From assembly GCF_003334335.1 (NCBI RefSeq), contig NZ_QOWQ01000055.1: 19,253 nt of DNA. One strand, given 5' to 3'. Positions 8,522 to 19,177 of the stretch are shown piece by piece. The translations under genes were made by a program, and so were the position numbers. The stretch is from Escherichia coli (lineage in GTDB: Bacteria; Pseudomonadota; Gammaproteobacteria; Enterobacterales; Enterobacteriaceae). The notes under the pieces are model-generated. The model did no database searches and was not told the DNA's origin. It saw only the letters and a program-made list of their open reading frames with translations. Within the stretch, counting starts at the first letter, position 1; each line of letters opens with the position of its first letter.

Positions 8522-9436
8522 ATGGCTGGTTTAAGGAATAACAACAACACACAGAATGCACAGTGGGCTGATTATGTGGGTGACATTCTTCGGGGGGCTC
8601 AGCCGATAAACCAGCTAGTACCTCAGCACCCTTATCTTAACGACGTCCCACTCATTGATGAGTTAAGGCATCAGAACACTCATCATGTTATTCCCTTGAC
8701 ACTTGATGTTGCAAAAAAAATACTCAGCCCAATAACATCATTTGATTACATTCATTTTATCACTACACATCCTTCAGGTATAAAAGATACACTCGCTTGG
8801 TTAGTTAACGCGGGTAAATTAATGACTGAGTTTGATGACAATGGGAAAATTATATTTAACCTTAATGCCTTAAAGTATACAAAAGCAAGTTACTTTGAAA
8901 TACTTGGAGAGAAATATATAAAAATCACAACATCCAGCCCCTGGCTTTTAGAAAAGCTCGGTAAATATATTTTCTCTTCACGAGCGCCTCAAGTTCTGGA
9001 ACTCGCTATTGGCTGGCGAGGAGCTTTATCTGAATCAATAAAAGGAGTTAAGTTCTGTATCTGGTTTTCAGTAGCCTGGAGAACCATAGAATTTATTATG
9101 AGTTCAGAGCGAGATCTGGTTAATTTTCTTGGCGATTTTTCAATGGATGTGGCCAAAGCAGTTATAGCCGGTGGTGTTGCAACCGCTATTGGAAGTCTGG
9201 CTTCTTTTGCCTGTGTTAGCTTTGGCTTTCCAGTAATTCTTGTCGGAGGAGCAATTTTACTGACAGGGATAGTGTGTACAGTTGTTTTAAATGAAATCGA
9301 TGCTCAATGCCATTTATCAGAAAAATTAAAATATGCAATTAGAGATGGACTAAAACGGCAACAGGAACTTGATAAATGGAAAAGGGAAAACATGACTCCA
9401 TTTATGTATGTTCTTAACACTCCACCCGTGATATGA
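8522..9436 (+). CDS. Hcp-linked 304-aa protein with soluble N-terminal domain and C-terminal small-xxx-small (glycine-zipper-like) transmembrane hairpin; likely the intact form of the yafU-type gene
   Basis: GGAGAG RBS 6 nt before ATG at 8522 (the track's 8507 start is a TTG). C-terminal hydrophobic segments VIAGGVATAIGSLASFACVSFGFPVILVGGAILLTGIVCTVVL. Position between hcp and ykfM matches where yafU sits in K-12 (from memory). Confidence 0.7.
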   Translation: MAGLRNNNNTQNAQWADYVGDILRGAQPINQLVPQHPYLNDVPLIDELRHQNTHHVIPLTLDVAKKILSPITSFDYIHFITTHPSGIKDTLAWLVNAGKLMTEFDDNGKIIFNLNALKYTKASYFEILGEKYIKITTSSPWLLEKLGKYIFSSRAPQVLELAIGWRGALSESIKGVKFCIWFSVAWRTIEFIMSSERDLVNFLGDFSMDVAKAVIAGGVATAIGSLASFACVSFGFPVILVGGAILLTGIVCTVVLNEIDAQCHLSEKLKYAIRDGLKRQQELDKWKRENMTPFMYVLNTPPVI

Positions 9437-9445
9437 GGATTAACC

Positions 9446-9925
9446 ATGCGTTTACATGTTAAATTAAAAGAGTTTCTTTCGATGTTTTTTATGGCCATAT
9501 TATTTTTCCCTGCATTCAATGCTTCTTTGTTTTTTACCGGAGTTAAACCTCTATATTCAATAATAAAATGCTCCACGGAAATATTTTATGATTGGAGAAT
9601 GTTGATTCTGTGCTTCGGTTTCATGTCGTTTTCCTTTTTAAATATTCATGTAATTTTACTTACGATAATAAAATCATTCTTAATCAAAAAAACGAAGGTA
9701 GTCAATTTCGCCACAGACATAACAATACAGCTAACTCTTATATTTTTACTAATAGCTATCGTAATAGCACCTTTAATAGCTCCTTTTGTCACAGGATATG
9801 TCAATACTAATTATCACCCCTGCGGTAATAATACGGGAATTTTCCCAGGAGCAATCTATATTAAAAATGGCATGAAATGTAATAATGGATATATTTCTCG
9901 CAAGGAAGATTCAGCAGTTAAATAA
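9446..9925 (+). CDS. ykfM: Small polytopic inner-membrane protein (159 aa), YkfM-like
   Basis: GAGG RBS; start 10 nt after the upstream stop; several hydrophobic helices; very AT-rich coding sequence; size and position match ykfM next to yafT in K-12 (from memory). Confidence 0.7.
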   Translation: MRLHVKLKEFLSMFFMAILFFPAFNASLFFTGVKPLYSIIKCSTEIFYDWRMLILCFGFMSFSFLNIHVILLTIIKSFLIKKTKVVNFATDITIQLTLIFLLIAIVIAPLIAPFVTGYVNTNYHPCGNNTGIFPGAIYIKNGMKCNNGYISRKEDSAVK

Positions 9926-10027
9926 TTAAATATTCTAAAACAAACAGTTTTTAACTCCGGATTCCATGTCCTTTCTTGCACTGTCTTTGTCAAGAAAAAT
10001 TTCTTATGCAAAGAATTTTGTATTATT

Positions 10028-10062
10028 GCCGCCAGAAATTCCTGGCGGCAGATATAATTTAT
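10028..10062 (+). terminator. Hairpin between convergent ykfM and yafT (probable bidirectional terminator)
   Basis: Stem gccgccag (10028-10035) / ctggcggc (10042-10049), loop aaattc, followed by a moderately T-rich tract. Confidence 0.4.
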
Positions 10063-10847
10063 TATTGATAGCGGTTAACCAAATCTTTTACCATCGCTTT
10101 ATAGGTCTTTTGCTTAAGTTGCATGATTTGCTGCTCTGTCATATCAGTCGTACTGGCTTCATTCTTGTCGGGCAATGGTGGAAGCACTTTATATTCATAA
10201 TTCACCGGCGACCAGGTAGCCCACTCACCTGTTGCCACATCCACCAGCGTGAAACGTACCAGGTAGCGCAGGGAGATAGCGTCAGTGAGTTTGTCATTTT
10301 TATAGTCGGACCATACTGTTGATTTCAGCGCAGAGTCATATTTTCCTGTCTGCAACATATCCTGGTAAACAATAATCGCTTTCTGATGTCCTTTTGCAGC
10401 CACAAAACGCAGTGCCTGCATCCAGTTCATATTCTCAGCACTGGCAACATCCTCGTTCTCATTTTTATCTTTGTTTTTGTTACAAGTCAGAGGCTTTTGC
10501 CTGTCCGGGATACCAGAGAATGTGGAAACAGTATAATATTTTCGCATCTCCTCCTGCATAATGGTTTCCGGTGCGCGGTTGCCGGATTGAACAAGTATTA
10601 CAGGAGAATTAAGGGGAACGCGGAACTCATCTCCATCAAGCGCAGCTTGAATATCCTCTTCGGATACGGCCAGAGTGGTTTCATTACCGAATAAATCTTT
10701 GTCTGTCAGTTGCTGGGGAGTGTTTTTATTAATATTACTTTGTGTGACTTGAGCTTTTTTCTTCTTTTCATCAATAGAAGATTCAGAGGCACATCCTGCA
10801 AGCAGCGAGAATAACACACATATGCAACAAAGCTTTTTTGAATTCAT
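10062..10847 (-). CDS. yafT: Lipoprotein YafT (261 aa)
   Basis: N-terminus [24 protein letters not shown] is a lipoprotein signal with lipobox LAGC; GAGGGAG RBS; size and position next to aspV match K-12 yafT (from memory). Confidence 0.8.
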
Positions 10848-11109
10848 AATTGGACACTCCCTCGCCTGTCATAATGATTAGAATATTTAGCATTGATAAC
10901 GGACTCTAATTATATACCTCACTTAAATAATAACAAACAAAATCAATTTGAAATATACATTCATTTAATCAATATAAATTTATTCTCTAGAAATATATTT
11001 AAGCTGAATGGTTCGATATCATTATTGAATTTTAATGAATGAGACAACAAGCGAGAATCACGCACCTACGCCAGAGTAAAATCATTGAACAGAGAAATGG
11101 TGGAATTCA

Positions 11110-11146
11110 AATACAAAAAAACCGCAAAATTAAAAATCTTGCGGCT
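11110..11146 (-). terminator. Rho-independent terminator downstream of aspV
   Basis: Minus-strand hairpin ccgcaagatttttaattttgcgg followed by a U-run (plus-strand A-run 11114-11121), ~30 nt after the tRNA 3' end. Confidence 0.6.
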
Positions 11147-11174
11147 CTCTGAACTCATTTTCATGAGTGAATAG

Positions 11175-11251
11175 TGGCGGAACGGACGGGACTCGAACCC
11201 GCGACCCCCTGCGTGACAGGCAGGTATTCTAACCGACTGAACTACCGCTCC
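11175..11251 (-). tRNA. aspV: tRNA-Asp (GUC), 77 nt with encoded CCA
   Basis: Reverse complement reads GGAGCGGTAGTTCAGTCGGTTAGAATACCTGCCTGTCACGCAGGGGGTCGCGGGTTCGAGTCCCGTCCGTTCCGCCA, the E. coli tRNA-Asp sequence as I recall it, with anticodon GUC in the loop. Confidence 0.95.
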
Positions 11252-11279
11252 GCGTTGTGTTCCGTTGGGAACGAGGCGA

Positions 11280-11308
11280 ATATTACGGATTGCCTCGACC
11301 TTCGTCAA
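11280..11308 (-). promoter_or_regulatory. Probable sigma70 promoter of aspV (TTGACG-17 nt-TAATAT) with GC-rich discriminator
   Basis: Minus strand: -35 TTGACG (11303-11308), 17-nt spacer, -10 TAATAT (11280-11285), then gcgcctc; AT-rich UP-like tract upstream; the tRNA starts ~28 nt downstream. Confidence 0.55.
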
Positions 11309-11383
11309 CGGTTTTTCTCATCTTTTGAATCGTTTGCTGCAAAAATCGCCCAAGTCGCTATTTTTAGCGCCTTTCACAGGTAT

Positions 11384-12115
11384 TTATGCTCGCCAGAGGC
11401 AACTTCCGCCTTTCTTCTGCACCAGATCGAGACGGGCTTCATGAGCTGCAATCTCTTCATCTGTCGCAAAAACAACGCGTAACTTACTTGCCTGACGTAC
11501 AATGCGCTGAATTGTTGCTTCACCTTGTTGCTGTTGTGTCTCTCCTTCCATCGCAAAAGCCATCGACGTTTGACCACCGGTCATCGCCAGATAAACTTCC
11601 GCAAGGATCTGGGCATCGAGTAATGCCCCGTGCAGCGTTCGTTTACTGTTATCTATTTCGTAGCGAGCACATAACGCATCGAGGCTGTTGCGCTTACCGG
11701 GAAACATTTTCCTCGCCACCGCAAGGCTATCGGTGACCTTACAGAAAGTATTGGTCTTCGGAATATCGCGCTTAAGCAACGAAAACTCGTAGTCCATAAA
11801 GCCGATATCGAACGCTGCGTTATGGATCACCAACTCCGCGCCGCGAATATAGTCCATGAACTCATCGGCTACTTCGGCAAACGTGGGCTTATCGAGCAAA
11901 AATTCATCGGCAATACCATGTACGCCAAAGGCTTCCGGATCCACCAGCCGATCGGGTTTGAGATAAACATGGAAGTTATTGCCCGTCAGGCGACGGTTCA
12001 CCACTTCAACGGCACCAATCTCAATGATCTTGTGGCCTTCATAGTGCGCACCAATCTGGTTCATACCGGTGGTTTCGGTATCGAGAACGATCTGGCGTGT
12101 AATTGCAGTGCTCAT
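11384..12115 (-). CDS. dnaQ: DNA polymerase III epsilon subunit (3'-5' proofreading exonuclease)
   Basis: Translation [20 protein letters not shown]...GGSCLWRA recognised as DnaQ (243 aa). An in-frame ATG three codons upstream (12122-12124) is an alternative start. Confidence 0.95.
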
Positions 12116-12179
12116 AGCGGTCATTTATGTCAGACTTGTCGTTTTACAGTTCGATTCAATTACAGGAAGTCTACCAGAG
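12116..12179. promoter_or_regulatory. Divergent dnaQ / rnhA promoter region
   Basis: 64-bp gap between divergent start codons; a possible rnhA promoter is TTGTCG-17 nt-ATTACA. Known from the literature to carry overlapping divergent promoters; individual sites not confidently resolved here. Confidence 0.45.
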
Positions 12180-12647
12180 ATGCTTAAACAGGTAGAAATT
12201 TTCACCGATGGTTCGTGTCTGGGCAATCCAGGACCTGGGGGTTACGGCGCTATTTTACGCTATCGCGGACGCGAGAAAACCTTTAGCGCTGGCTACACCC
12301 GCACCACCAACAACCGTATGGAGTTGATGGCCGCTATTGTCGCGCTGGAGGCGTTAAAAGAACATTGCGAAGTCATTTTGAGTACCGACAGCCAGTATGT
12401 CCGCCAGGGTATCACCCAGTGGATCCATAACTGGAAAAAACGTGGCTGGAAAACCGCAGACAAAAAACCAGTAAAAAATGTCGATCTCTGGCAACGTCTT
12501 GATGCTGCATTGGGGCAGCATCAAATCAAATGGGAATGGGTTAAAGGCCATGCCGGACACCCGGAAAACGAACGCTGTGATGAACTGGCTCGTGCCGCGG
12601 CGATGAATCCCACACTGGAAGATACAGGCTACCAAGTTGAAGTTTAA
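12180..12647 (+). CDS. rnhA: Ribonuclease HI
   Basis: [28 protein letters not shown]...TGYQVEV, 155 aa. The track's upstream-extended ORF from 12069 is rejected in favour of the ATG at 12180. Confidence 0.95.
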
Positions 12648-13366
12648 GCCTGTGGTTTACGACATTGCCGGGTGGCTCCAACCGCCTGGCGAATTCGTGG
12701 CTTGTTTTTACTCTGTTTCATCGGATTTAGCGTTAAAGGAATAGTCCGTTTCCGGGCAACAATAAGTTGTAAGCAACCAAGCGCAGGAATATGCGCATTC
12801 AATAGTTTTCCTCCGTGTTTGTTCCACGGGAGAACGTGGAAACGGCTGGCGTGTAGCACTTCAAAATTCAACAAAGAGAGCCAGTCCAGCTGCCGCATCA
12901 GAGTAAACATCCGGCTGTTATAGGGCGAGGTTTTGCGCAATACCGGCACAAGTTTGCGTAATCCCATAAAACTGATGGGATTGAAGCCACTAATGACCAG
13001 CCAGCCATCATCAATCAATACCCGATCGGCTTCACGCAATAAACGATGCGGATCGGTGCACCACGGCAATGTATGTGCCAGTAGACAAACATCAACGGAT
13101 TTATCGGCAAAAGGAAGATGAAGTGGGTCCGCCTGTACCTGGACGGGCATTCCTTGCGCAGAAACATTCACTTGATGAGAAACCGCGCACGCTTCGCAAT
13201 TGATTTCTGCGCTTAAATTGCCAATCTTAAGCAGATGAAAACCATACATTTTAGTGAACCACGGGTTGAGCTGGCGCTCCAGCGCCTTGCGATAAAGCTT
13301 TCCCCAGGGCAAATCGCCCCAGCAATCAGGAGCCACGACAGTTTGAGGGACTCTTGCCGGTTTCAT
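12644..13366 (-). CDS. yafS: Putative SAM-dependent methyltransferase YafS
   Basis: Translation [37 protein letters not shown]... recognised as YafS (240 aa; the track ORF adds 6 upstream codons). 3' end overlaps rnhA by 4 bp in convergent orientation. Confidence 0.85.
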
Positions 13367-13396
13367 CACAACCTTCCGTTTCACACTGAGAGGTAA

Positions 13397-14155
<759 letters not shown>

Positions 14156-14226
14156 TAAAACTTTCTTGTCATCGGCTCCGTTCGCCGTTATGATCGGTCG
14201 TCTTTTAAGCAACTATTGACACACAC

Positions 14227-15585
14227 ATGAAGGCAAAAGCGATATTACTCGCCTCTGTCCTGCTCGTGGGTTGCCAGAGTACCGGCAACGTTCAACAGCA
14301 CGCACAGAGCCTTTCTGCAGCTGGTCAAGGGGAAGCAGCAAAGTTTACAAGTCAGGCACGATGGATGGACGATGGGACGTCTATCGCGCCAGATGGTGAC
14401 TTGTGGGCTTTCATTGGCGACGAGCTAAAGATGGGAATTCCGGAAAATGACCGGATTCGCGAACAGAAACAGAAATATTTACGCAATAAGAGCTATCTCC
14501 ACGATGTAACTTTACGGGCAGAGCCGTATATGTACTGGATAGCAGGGCAAGTTAAAAAACGTAACATGCCTATGGAACTGGTACTACTACCCATAGTGGA
14601 GAGCGCTTTTGATCCTCACGCAACGTCTGGCGCCAATGCCGCAGGCATCTGGCAGATCATTCCGAGCACGGGGCGCAATTATGGTTTGAAACAGACCCGC
14701 AATTATGACGCGCGTCGCGATGTTGTTGCTTCAACAACTGCCGCGCTGAATATGATGCAGCGTCTGAACAAAATGTTTGACGGCGACTGGCTTCTGACCG
14801 TAGCGGCTTATAACAGCGGCGAAGGTCGGGTCATGAAGGCAATTAAAACGAACAAAGCGCGTGGGAAATCCACGGACTTCTGGTCGTTACCGTTGCCGCA
14901 GGAAACGAAGCAGTACGTGCCTAAAATGCTGGCATTGAGTGATATTCTCAAAAACAGCAAGCGTTATGGCGTACGTCTGCCAACGACCGATGAAAGCCGT
15001 GCTCTGGCGCGTGTGCACCTGAGCAGCCCGGTTGAAATGGCGAAGGTAGCAGATATGGCGGGGATTTCCGTCAGCAAGCTGAAGACATTCAACGCTGGCG
15101 TAAAAGGCTCCACGCTGGGCGCAAGTGGCCCGCAGTACGTGATGGTGCCAAAGAAGCATGCAGATCAACTGCGTGAATCTCTGGCTTCAGGCGAAATTGC
15201 TGCTGTACAGTCGACGCTGGTTGCCGACAATACGCCGCTTAACAGCCGTGTTTACACCGTACGCTCTGGCGACACGCTTTCAAGTATCGCTTCACGTCTC
15301 GGCGTAAGCACCAAAGATTTGCAGCAGTGGAACAAACTGCGCGGATCTAAGCTGAAGCCAGGCCAAAGTTTGACGATTGGTGCAGGCAGTAGCGCACAGC
15401 GACTGGCAAACAACAGCGATAGCATTACGTATCGTGTGCGCAAAGGCGATTCGCTTTCAAGCATTGCTAAACGCCACGGCGTGAACATCAAAGATGTGAT
15501 GCGCTGGAACAGCGACACTGCGAATCTGCAACCAGGCGATAAGCTGACGTTGTTTGTGAAAAACAACAACATGCCAGATTCCTGA
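14227..15585 (+). CDS. mltD: Membrane-bound lytic murein transglycosylase D (lipoprotein with C-terminal LysM repeats)
   Basis: 452 aa; lipoprotein signal MKAKAILLASVLLVGCQS; two LysM-like repeats near the C-terminus (YTVRSGDTLSSIASRLGV..., YRVRKGDSLSSIAKRHGV...). Confidence 0.93.
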   Translation: MKAKAILLASVLLVGCQSTGNVQQHAQSLSAAGQGEAAKFTSQARWMDDGTSIAPDGDLWAFIGDELKMGIPENDRIREQKQKYLRNKSYLHDVTLRAEPYMYWIAGQVKKRNMPMELVLLPIVESAFDPHATSGANAAGIWQIIPSTGRNYGLKQTRNYDARRDVVASTTAALNMMQRLNKMFDGDWLLTVAAYNSGEGRVMKAIKTNKARGKSTDFWSLPLPQETKQYVPKMLALSDILKNSKRYGVRLPTTDESRALARVHLSSPVEMAKVADMAGISVSKLKTFNAGVKGSTLGASGPQYVMVPKKHADQLRESLASGEIAAVQSTLVADNTPLNSRVYTVRSGDTLSSIASRLGVSTKDLQQWNKLRGSKLKPGQSLTIGAGSSAQRLANNSDSITYRVRKGDSLSSIAKRHGVNIKDVMRWNSDTANLQPGDKLTLFVKNNNMPDS

Positions 15586-15603
15586 CAAACCAGATAATAA
15601 AAA

Positions 15604-15632
15604 GGCACCGATTCCCCCGGTGCCTTTTTTAT
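15604..15632. terminator. Bidirectional rho-independent terminator between convergent mltD and yafE
   Basis: Stem ggcaccg (15604-15610) / cggtgcc (15618-15624), loop attcccc, T-run 15625-15630; an A-run precedes it, giving a U-run for the minus-strand transcript. Confidence 0.7.
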
Positions 15633-16256
15633 TTATGCCGCTTTATGTGCATCTACCATGATGATATCACTGGTGAAAAAGCCATCATTCTGCAAGGCAA
15701 AATACGTTCTCACCTCTGTCGATGCGCTCTGTTGGTAAATGCGAATAGCGTCTACTAACGCTTCTGGCGTACGCATTCTCGCGACCCATGAAGAAAATTC
15801 CAGCGGTAACTTATCTGTAATTAAATTATCAACTATCAGATTGGCTTCATTGATTAACGTCAACCACTCACCGCTGGCGTAGTTTCGTACGTGAGAGGTA
15901 TCGCGTAATGCTTCTACCGTCTGTAACCAGATGTCGCGCACTGGGTGACCCGGAGACATTACGTCCATCACAATCAGCCTACCGCCAGGTTTCAATATCC
16001 TATTCACTTCTCGCAGTGCTGCACCAACATCATGCCAGTGATGGGCAGAATAACGGCTGATAACAATATCAAATGCGTTATCGGCAAATGGCAGACTTTC
16101 GGCATATCCCTGGCGGGTGGTGATATTTTTCAGTTGCCGGGCTTCGGCAGCTTGTGCCACGACATCCAGCATGTGGGCAGATAAGTCATACGCCACCACC
16201 GCGCTCACGTTTTGCGCAGCGCCAAACGTTGGTCTGCCCTGTGGCAGACCTGACAT
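15633..16256 (-). CDS. yafE: Putative class I SAM-dependent methyltransferase YafE (207 aa; motif I not evident)
   Basis: Contains post-I (VVAYDLSAHML), motif II (LPFADNAFDIVIS) and motif III (ILKPGGRLIV) signatures; starts 3 nt after the yafD stop. Confidence 0.85.
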   Translation of the reverse strand: MSGLPQGRPTFGAAQNVSAVVAYDLSAHMLDVVAQAAEARQLKNITTRQGYAESLPFADNAFDIVISRYSAHHWHDVGAALREVNRILKPGGRLIVMDVMSPGHPVRDIWLQTVEALRDTSHVRNYASGEWLTLINEANLIVDNLITDKLPLEFSSWVARMRTPEALVDAIRIYQQSASTEVRTYFALQNDGFFTSDIIMVDAHKAA

Positions 16257-16259
16257 ACC

Positions 16260-17300
<1,041 letters not shown>

Positions 17301-18215
17301 ATGAAAGCCACGTCGGAAGAACTCGCCATTTTTGTTTCGGTCGTCGAAAGCGGCAGCTTTAGCCGGGCAGCGGAACAATTAGGGCAAGCAAACTCAGCGG
17401 TAAGCCGGGCGGTGAAAAAGCTGGAGATGAAACTTGGCGTTAGCCTGCTTAATCGGACCACGCGACAACTTAGCCTGACGGAAGAAGGCGAGCGTTATTT
17501 TCGTCGCGTACAGTCAATTTTGCAGGAGATGGCAGCGGCAGAATCAGAAATTATGGAGACGCGTAATACACCGCGTGGACTGTTACGGATCGATGCCGCA
17601 ACTCCAGTGGTGCTGCACTTTCTGATGCCGTTAATTAAGCCTTTCCGTGAACGCTATCCGGAAGTCACTTTGTCGCTAGTCTCCTCCGAAACGATTATTA
17701 ATTTGATCGAAAGAAAAGTGGATGTCGCGATACGCGCTGGTACGTTAACGGATTCCAGCTTACGTGCCAGGCCGTTATTTAACAGTTATCGAAAAATTAT
17801 CGCCTCCCCCGATTATATTTCCCGCTACGGGAAGCCAGAAACGATCGACGATTTAAAGCAACATATTTGCCTGGGATTCACTGAACCCGCTTCCCTCAAT
17901 ACCTGGCCGATAGCCCGTAGCGATGGACAATTACATGAGGTGAAGTACGGTTTGTCATCCAATAGTGGGGAAACACTGAAACAGCTTTGCCTGAGTGGCA
18001 ACGGGATTGCGTGTTTGTCCGACTACATGATCGACAAAGAAATCGCTCGCGGAGAATTGGTGGAGTTAATGGCAGATAAAGTGTTGCCAGTGGAAATGCC
18101 ATTCAGTGCCGTCTATTACAGCGACCGTGCGGTAAGTACGCGCATCCGGGCTTTTATCGATTTCCTTAGCGAGCATGTAAAAACAGCTCCCGGAGGAGCT
18201 GTCAGAGAGGCTTAA
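17301..18215 (+). CDS. yafC: LysR-family transcriptional regulator YafC
   Basis: 304 aa; N-terminal helix-turn-helix ([23 protein letters not shown]); AGGAG RBS. Confidence 0.9.
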
Positions 18216-19015
18216 TCCCATTCAGGAGCCAGACCTTCCGGGCTAACCAGGCGGTCGTTGCAATCCAGTGCGGCGATCGCTTTTTTATCTTCGGCATCAA
18301 GCTGTAAATTTTGTGCCTTAAGATTACTTTCCAGGTTTTTACGTTTAGTAGAAGAAGGAATTACTGAGTAACCTTCCCCCATAGCCCACGCCAGAATCAC
18401 TTGTGCCGGAGTCGCATTGTGTTTAGCTGCGATACGAGCAATAACCTCATCTTTCAGGGCCTTACCATACGCCAGCGTCATATAGGAAGTAATATGGATG
18501 CCGTGCTGTTTAGCCCAGGCAACCACTTTACGGTTTTGCAGATAAGGAGAGAGTTCAATCTGGTTAGTAGCGATGTTTTCAGCACCAACAGCAGCAATCG
18601 CTTTTTCCATCAACGGGATCGTGAAGTTGGAAATACCGATCTCACGCGTCAGCCCTTGTTTTTTGGCTTCCAGCAGCGCCTGCATAAACTCTTCAACAGA
18701 GACTTCATCGTTTGGTGACGGCCAGTGGATTAGCGTCAGATCAACATAATCGGTACGCAATTTTTGCAGGCTCTCTTTCAGACTTGGGATCAATTTGTCT
18801 TTGCTGAGATTTTCAATCCAGATTTTAGTGGTGATGTAGAGTTCATGACGTGGCACGCCACTTTCTGCAATCGCCTGACCTACTGCGGCTTCGTTATCAT
18901 AGATTTGTGCGGTATCAATTGCGCGATAACCAAGTTCAAGCGCCGTTATCACAGATGAAATAACAACGTCGTCTTTCAGACGGAAAGTACCTAAACCAAA
19001 TGCAGGGATAGCCAT
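18212..19015 (-). CDS. dkgB: 2,5-diketo-D-gluconate reductase B (aldo-keto reductase)
   Basis: 267 aa; aldo-keto reductase motifs; 3' end overlaps yafC by 4 bp in convergent orientation. Confidence 0.92.
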
Positions 19016-19136
19016 AATATGCCTCTTTTAATGCTATTTTCGTTAACTGAGGTGATTATGGGCTTCAGACTGTTGAGGAAAAAGAGCGTAAAATGCAGAG
19101 GATTTTTGCGATTCTGGCAATAATAGATATACAGAC

Positions 19137-19165
19137 GAAAAAAAACCTCGAGCGTTAACTCGAGG
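19137..19165 (-). terminator. Rho-independent terminator downstream of aspU (end of the rRNA operon in K-12)
   Basis: Minus-strand hairpin cctcgag-ttaacg-ctcgagg (plus 19146-19165) followed by a U-run (plus-strand A-run ending 19145). Confidence 0.65.
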
Positions 19166-19177
19166 CTTCTTAATAAG

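Follow-up and report, generated by a model that had tools for sequence, protein, structure and literature searches.

A sigma-70 promoter of the stable-RNA type upstream of the Escherichia coli tRNA-Asp gene aspV: start site, -10 register and likeness to the rrn promoters

The closest described counterparts of the promoter considered here are the rrn promoters and the promoters of free-standing tRNA units, among which that of tyrT is stringently controlled. The tRNA operon promoter pArgX is inhibited by ppGpp (PMC5137449). G+C-rich discriminators and downstream-shifted transcription starts destabilise the open complex, leading to sensitivity to DksA and ppGpp (PMC7822876; PMC4696680), and rrn P2 has been described as the basal, more constitutive rrn promoter (PMC4696680). 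For the purpose of comparison, the two promoters of rrnH were read directly from the MG1655 genome, in which P1 is TTGTCT-16 bp-TATAAT-GCGCCTCC-A and P2 is TTGACT-16 bp-TAATAT-ACGCCACC.

The aspV locus was analysed within a stretch of E. coli DNA of 19,253 nucleotides, referred to here as the window. Positions 9080..19253 of this window match the reverse complement of MG1655 228929..239102 with 100% identity and encompass aspU, dkgB, yafC, yafD, yafE, mltD, gloB, yafS, rnhA, dnaQ, aspV, yafT, ykfM and part of yafU; a window position x corresponds to MG1655 position 236931 + (11251 - x). The local gene order is dnaQ-aspV-yafT, and dnaQ ends at 11384, its stop codon lying 75 nt 5' of the -35 hexamer. 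The aspV gene and its status as a separate transcription unit have reportedly been known since 1987, through the work of Horiuchi and colleagues. The features of the unit, ordered in the direction of transcription and numbered from the transcription start, are as follows.

11360..11364 (-92..-88), minus strand: A-tract AAAAT, 78-99% conserved among variable neighbouring columns.
11323..11351 (-79..-51), minus strand: upstream block GGGCGATTTTTGCAGCAAACGATTCAAAA, with 1.57 bits per column against 0.37-0.71 in its variable flanks.
11309..11318 (-46..-37), minus strand: A-tract AGAAAAACCG adjoining the -35 hexamer, from its conservation a candidate proximal UP-element subsite.
11308..11303 (-36..-31), minus strand: -35 hexamer TTGACG, matching TTGACA at 5/6 positions in the consensus scan.
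11302..11286, minus strand: 17-bp spacer, ending in a nearly invariant CCG.
11285..11280 (-13..-8), minus strand: -10 hexamer TAATAT, matching TATAAT at 4/6 positions in the consensus scan.
11279..11273 (-7..-1), minus strand: discriminator TCGCCTC, 5/7 of its bases being G or C.
11272, minus strand: transcription start G(+1), equal to MG1655 236910, from published TAP dRNA-seq and Cappable-seq.
11272..11259 (+1..+14), minus strand: leader hairpin GTTCC-CAAC-GGAAC, from per-sequence folds.
11272..11252, minus strand: 5' leader, 21 nt long, which RNase P cuts off the pre-tRNA.
11251..11175, minus strand: aspV, tRNA-Asp(GUC), 77 nt with CCA encoded (ARAGORN; Rfam RF00005, 67.7 bits; MG1655 b0216).
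11150..11109, minus strand: intrinsic terminator from the terminator scan, a stem-loop AGAGAGCCGCAAGATTTTTAATTTTGCGG of 16 pairs followed by a T-run (TTTTTT TGTATTT).

Read along the minus strand, the window gives AAAAACCG TTGACG AAGGTCGAGGCAATCCG TAATAT TCGCCTC G(+1)TTCCC and, over a longer span, GAGAAAAACCG-TTGACG-AAGGTCGAGGCAATCCG-TAATAT-TCGCCTC-GTTCCCAACGGAACACAACGC-GGAGCGG. An earlier note, made from the sequence of this stretch, had placed a stable-RNA promoter at 11280-11308 (TTGACG, a 17-nt spacer and TAATAT); these coordinates proved exact, and the same site was returned by the consensus scan. The arrangement TTGACG-17-TAATAT has its hexamers within the 16-18 bp separation of sigma-70 promoters and carries both key bases of the -10 hexamer, the A at position 2 and the T at position 6, while an extended -10 motif (TGn) is absent from the spacer. 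Two details of the earlier description require amendment. With 9/12 positions of the two hexamers in agreement with the sigma-70 consensus, the match is good, and the term near-consensus was generous. Furthermore, the seven bases of the discriminator are TCGCCTC and not the quoted gcgcctc, a string that occurs once in the window, at 8984; the description of the discriminator as G+C-rich nevertheless holds for the corrected string.

Hexamer pairs of this quality are common. The whole window contains 33 of them, as against 23.5 +/- 5.1 in shuffled sequences, and at least one such match arises in 5.2% of dinucleotide shuffles of the 132-nt dnaQ-aspV spacer (1.5% if a 17-bp spacer is demanded). 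The hexamer match by itself is unremarkable and only suggestive. We judge the aspV promoter to be real because it is conserved and because its transcription start has been mapped, and not from the hexamer match in isolation.

The start has been located by two published methods, both of which are specific for 5'-triphosphate ends. TAP dRNA-seq of E. coli BW25113 (Romero et al. 2014; PMC4681348) reports the start FWD_(I)-236910, where Class I denotes starts that are enriched by TAP and coincide with the leading edge of transcription; in the table of that report, 236910 is listed without RegulonDB overlap at that time. Cappable-seq (Ettwiller et al. 2016; PMC4782308) reports 236910 on the plus strand with a relative read score of 10.7, as compared to 405 for dnaQ, and contains no other plus-strand start between those of dnaQ (236021 and 236046) and 236910. 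Since the aspV leader is short-lived, the modest Cappable-seq score says little about the strength of the promoter. The two maps thus agree, rather than pointing elsewhere, on window position 11272, a G that lies 8 nt past the last T of TAATAT and, on these published data, within the 6-9 nt 3' of the -10 hexamer at which the triphosphate end of a sigma-70 transcript is expected. The mature tRNA begins 28 nt after the end of TAATAT, and aspV is presented in the dRNA-seq report (PMC4681348, Fig. 4C) as an example of exact 5' processing by RNase P, with cleavages 1-3 nt past the CCA. A minor Cappable-seq start at MG1655 236925 (window 11257, minus strand; score 3.9) falls on a C, 6 nt before the mature tRNA; no -10-like hexamer lies upstream of it, it is missing from the dRNA-seq list, and it is probably noise.

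A plasmid-borne fragment bears on the same question. Wang et al. cloned the region -95..+188, without dnaQ, and obtained a functional anticodon-mutant tRNA whose expression was described as driven by the native promoter. The terminator at 11150..11109 falls within this fragment, which was cloned as the 'aspV operon with original promoter and terminator'. The clone weakly supports a self-sufficient aspV promoter; read-through from the vector is possible.

The extent of conservation was assessed by means of a DnaQ scan with one genome per species, which returned 80 loci (DnaQ 85-100% identical) from Escherichia, Salmonella, Citrobacter, Enterobacter, Klebsiella, Raoultella, Kluyvera, Kosakonia, Lelliottia, Trabulsiella, Yokenella, Cedecea, Pluralibacter and other genera. 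A tRNA-Asp gene is located about 135 nt 3' of dnaQ in 78 of these 80 loci. The comparison set comprised 79 sequences, namely the window and 78 other dnaQ-aspV regions, and the column statistics were calculated on the 78 distinct sequences among them. The -35 hexamer TTGACG is invariant (79/79; 2.00 bits per column), and the spacer measures 17 bp in every sequence. The -10 hexamer, at 1.95 bits per column, is TAATAT in 76 sequences, TAGTAT in two and TACTAT in one, its changes being confined to the third position. The discriminator (-7..-1; 1.65 bits per column) is TCGCCTC in 39 of the 79 sequences, TCGCTTC in 14, GCGCCTC in 12, GCGCTTC in four and one of several rarer forms in ten, with C(-6) and G(-5) invariant in the 78 distinct sequences. 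The start base is G in 78/79, and the first transcribed bases, +1..+6, retain 1.89 bits per column. Within the spacer, the 3' part (-19..-14) is held at 1.53 bits and the 5' part (-30..-20), at 0.59 bits, is free to vary. In E. coli itself, a search of 5426 complete genomes returned the 99-nt promoter segment, with identities of 90-100%, from 5425. The phylogenetic footprint marks the -35 hexamer, the -10 hexamer and the discriminator as constrained, in a textbook promoter pattern.

The footprint extends well upstream of the -35 hexamer. The A-tract region -46..-37 retains 1.80 bits per column, and its AAAAA at -44..-40 is invariant in the 78 distinct sequences. Beyond a variable gap (-50..-47; 0.37 bits) lies the upstream block, whose consensus at -79..-51 is GGG(C/T)GATTTTTGCAGCAAACGATTCAAAA; further upstream, at -100..-80, conservation falls to 0.71 bits per column. 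The A/T tracts of the block recur roughly every 10 bp, in phase with the A-tract at -44..-40. The block also contains a Fis-like 15-mer centred near -71/-72, with the terminal G, the Y-R steps and an A/T centre, which reproduces only part of the Fis consensus. The promoter-proximal Fis sites of rrnB P1 and tyrT occupy this same position, near -71. The aspV promoter matches the distal UP subsite poorly. From their conservation, the -79..-51 block is inferred to be an upstream activating region, and the A-tract at -92..-88 may be a second upstream activator or a curvature element. The comparison shows selection on the upstream region as a whole (-92 to +14) throughout the Enterobacteriaceae. The T-tract at -74..-69 was also considered as the tail of a dnaQ terminator and rejected: the scan found no terminator there, the fold of the spacer did not stand out from shuffled sequences (z = 0.21), and an adjacent hairpin could be drawn in only 8/77 sequences.

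The aspV promoter is genuine and already known, its start being present in two public data sets and its architecture being the classical one of stable-RNA promoters. Indeed, the mapped start, the phylogenetic footprint and the likeness to rrnH P1 and P2 all support a sigma-70 promoter of the stable-RNA type: it drives a stable RNA, the tRNA lying 21 nt past the start, and it possesses a G+C-rich discriminator with a C at -6. The call made from sequence in the earlier note was right, and the present analysis fixes the register of the -10 hexamer and the start site.

We regard it as highly probable that this is the sigma-70 promoter of a monocistronic aspV unit, with a presumed activation from upstream and a presumed stringent control. 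The recognition elements for the holoenzyme, TTGACG (-36..-31) and TAATAT (-13..-8), are in place and transcription starts at the G at 11272, the unit consisting of the 21-nt leader, which RNase P removes, the 77-nt tRNA-Asp(GUC) and a short trailer, with the intrinsic terminator at 11150..11109. To judge from the architecture, the A-tract at -44..-40 would serve as a proximal UP subsite for the RNA polymerase alpha subunit's C-terminal domain, and the block at -79..-51, possibly together with the A-tract at -92..-88, would activate from upstream, Fis probably binding near -71. The discriminator TCGCCTC would give a short-lived open complex, to which the C two bases past the -10 hexamer and a start at 8 rather than 7 nt may contribute. 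Owing to this short-lived complex, output would be expected to follow growth rate and to be inhibited by ppGpp/DksA upon amino-acid starvation, as at rrn P1 and P2 and at other tRNA promoters. Control of aspV by ppGpp and DksA is likely, in that the architecture motivates it well.

The only serious alternative with regard to regulation, which we hold to be unlikely, is that the aspV promoter is genuine but essentially constitutive, forming a stable open complex, and that the discriminator serves promoter escape or the leader RNA instead. This reading draws on the core elements, which at aspV are TTGACG with 17 bp as compared to TTGTCT with 16 bp at rrnH P1; a 17-bp spacer and a strong -35 hexamer both tend to favour stable open complexes and could lessen sensitivity to ppGpp. 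Furthermore, the -10 hexamer and discriminator most resemble those of rrn P2, described as the basal, constitutive rrn promoter, and a literature search on aspV with ppGpp, DksA, Fis or dnaQ yielded no experiment on the regulation of this promoter. That the first discriminator base in the window is a T, and that 9/12 hexamer matches are common, also counts against the preferred explanation. However, neither the discriminator's CGC core nor the C two bases past the -10 hexamer varies across genera, a G+C-rich discriminator is the recognised determinant of DksA/ppGpp sensitivity (PMC7822876), and inhibition by ppGpp is seen at those tRNA promoters that have been examined, for example pArgX (PMC5137449).

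The sigma-70 promoter with stringent control being preferred, the register of its -10 hexamer can be examined against a second possibility, which we consider very improbable: a -10 of AATATT (11284..11279) with an 18-bp spacer and a 6-nt discriminator, CGCCTC. The two registers obtain the same score of 9/12 in the consensus scan, and AATATT would place the mapped start, G 11272, at the canonical 7 nt past the hexamer. The natural variants nonetheless speak against it, since three sequences would have G or C in place of the A required at position 2, and the T required at position 6 is retained by no more than 77% of the distinct sequences (16 of the 79 have G there and two have C); in addition, an 18-bp spacer is suboptimal. 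In the TAATAT register, by contrast, both key positions are invariant and variation is restricted to the tolerant third position. The natural variants among the 79 sequences thus select TAATAT, with a discriminator of 7 nt and a start 8 nt from the -10 hexamer.

Scarcely credible is the proposal that aspV is expressed mainly by read-through from the dnaQ promoters, with the 236910 end a processing product and the hexamers a chance occurrence: although some read-through is likely in the absence of an intrinsic terminator between the dnaQ stop codon and aspV, and hexamer matches of such quality are frequent in the window, the 236910 end is enriched both by TAP and by triphosphate capping and is hence a primary end, conservation holds the start base and both hexamers at their fixed distance amid drifting neighbours, and a clone devoid of dnaQ still gives functional tRNA. 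Read-through as a secondary contribution to the promoter-driven unit is a different matter. In the stretch from the dnaQ stop codon to the aspV promoter (11309..11383, minus strand), no intrinsic terminator was detected, either in the window or in the compared sequences. Because no terminator intervenes, dnaQ transcripts probably run into aspV, where either cleavage by RNase P or the terminator of aspV would end them.

The transcribed leader shows a regularity of its own. Leader lengths range from 17 to 23 nt among the 79 sequences, and all 40 distinct leaders (40/40) fold into a hairpin that begins at +1 or +2, with energies of -3.7 to -10.1 kcal/mol and loops of 3-6 nt. Changes in the hairpin arms are few and are mostly G-U-compatible on this strand only. 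In its 5' arm, (C)GTTCC, the hairpin has the same sequence as the tRNA's 3' acceptor strand (CGTTCC). RNAalifold identified no double compensatory changes in the leader, in an alignment where MAFFT had misaligned the 3' arm in some genera, and in its consensus, subject to this same misalignment, the leader is instead paired to the tRNA's 5' end. That the hairpin has a function, in the aspV precursor or in the promoter's initially transcribed region, as opposed to being a passive leader, is a tentative and rather doubtful proposition. Were it functional, it might tune RNase P cleavage, protect the triphosphate end, compete with the acceptor stem as the RNA folds or set promoter escape.

A second tRNA-Asp(GUC) gene, aspU, is present at 19178..19253 (minus strand) as the last gene of the rrnH operon, one base of it being cut by the end of the window. 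The window contains no separate promoter for aspU, so that aspV is the only independently transcribed tRNA-Asp gene here. Two open reading frames of 80 and 102 aa that overlie the tRNA and the promoter were dismissed as spurious. The best promoter match in the vicinity of aspV is found upstream of yafT, at 10909..10936 (minus strand), where TTGTTA-16-TATAAT agrees with the consensus at 10/12 positions; a Cappable-seq start at MG1655 237280 (window 10902) lies 7 nt past its TATAAT, and this is likely to be the yafT promoter. Genomic SELEX (PMC5493296) reports a peak for the RpoS holoenzyme, with an intensity of 19.0, between aspV and ykfM and inside yafT, at MG1655 238050 (window about 10132).

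Positions 313..9079 of the window, about 8.8 kb, are missing from MG1655, which matches the window on either side (78..312 and 9080..19253); at the junction, the two flanking MG1655 segments share an overlap of 5 bp. The region 313..9079 recurs at 99.9% identity in other E. coli, where the annotation gives an Rhs core protein fragment, a C-terminal fragment of IcmF, VasL, Hcp and a transposase of ISAs1. It is what remains of a type VI secretion island linked to aspV and lost from K-12. Within it, positions 1282..1402 (minus strand) match the Rfam family RF01999, group-II-D1D4-2, with 81.8 bits against a gathering score of 36, directly 5' of an ISAs1-family transposase gene on the same strand (1168..1). 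A search of the window with Rfam detected no other parts of a group II intron, and the match may represent a piece of an intron or belong to the end of the insertion sequence.

With respect to the described systems, the likeness of the aspV promoter to rrnH P1 is most evident in the discriminator, TCGCCTCG in aspV as compared to GCGCCTCC in P1, with 6/8 positions identical. Indeed, the string gcgcctc quoted in the earlier note is the discriminator of rrnH P1, as well as that of aspV in 12 of the 79 sequences. The two promoters also share a C two bases past the -10 hexamer, a start more than 7 nt from it, an A/T-rich stretch adjoining the -35 hexamer and a conserved upstream region where rrn P1 has its Fis sites. 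They differ in that aspV possesses the better -35 hexamer (TTGACG vs TTGTCT) and the weaker -10 hexamer (TAATAT vs TATAAT), a spacer of 17 rather than 16 bp, a discriminator of 7 rather than 8 nt and a start at G rather than A; furthermore, aspV has an A-tract of the proximal type only, and not the full UP element of rrn P1. The P1 type, of which rrnB P1 is the studied model, is marked by a suboptimal spacer of 16 bp and by a start at 9 nt from the -10 hexamer, whereas aspV has 17 bp in 79/79 sequences and starts at 8 nt.

The resemblance to rrnH P2 centres on the -10 hexamer and discriminator, CCGTAATATTCGCC in aspV and GCGTAATATACGCC in P2. The hexamer TAATAT is identical in the two, its surroundings read CCG-TAATAT-TCGCC and GCG-TAATAT-ACGCC, respectively, and the -35 hexamers are TTGACG and TTGACT; an AGAAAAA tract upstream is a further point of likeness. 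In contrast, the spacer of P2 is 16 bp and P2 stands in tandem, 3' of P1, whereas aspV has a single promoter with a conserved upstream block of its own.

Finally, the promoters of free-standing tRNA operons, such as pArgX of argX-hisR-leuT-proM, are likewise of the sigma-70 type and are situated tens of nucleotides 5' of the tRNA, and aspV resembles units of this kind in its discriminator, which is rich in G+C, in its short leader, which RNase P cuts off, and in having an intrinsic terminator. It differs from them as a single-gene unit placed directly 3' of dnaQ, a gene with no evident terminator of its own. By its sequence, the aspV promoter appears to work like an rrn promoter, but it does not belong to the P1 subtype.
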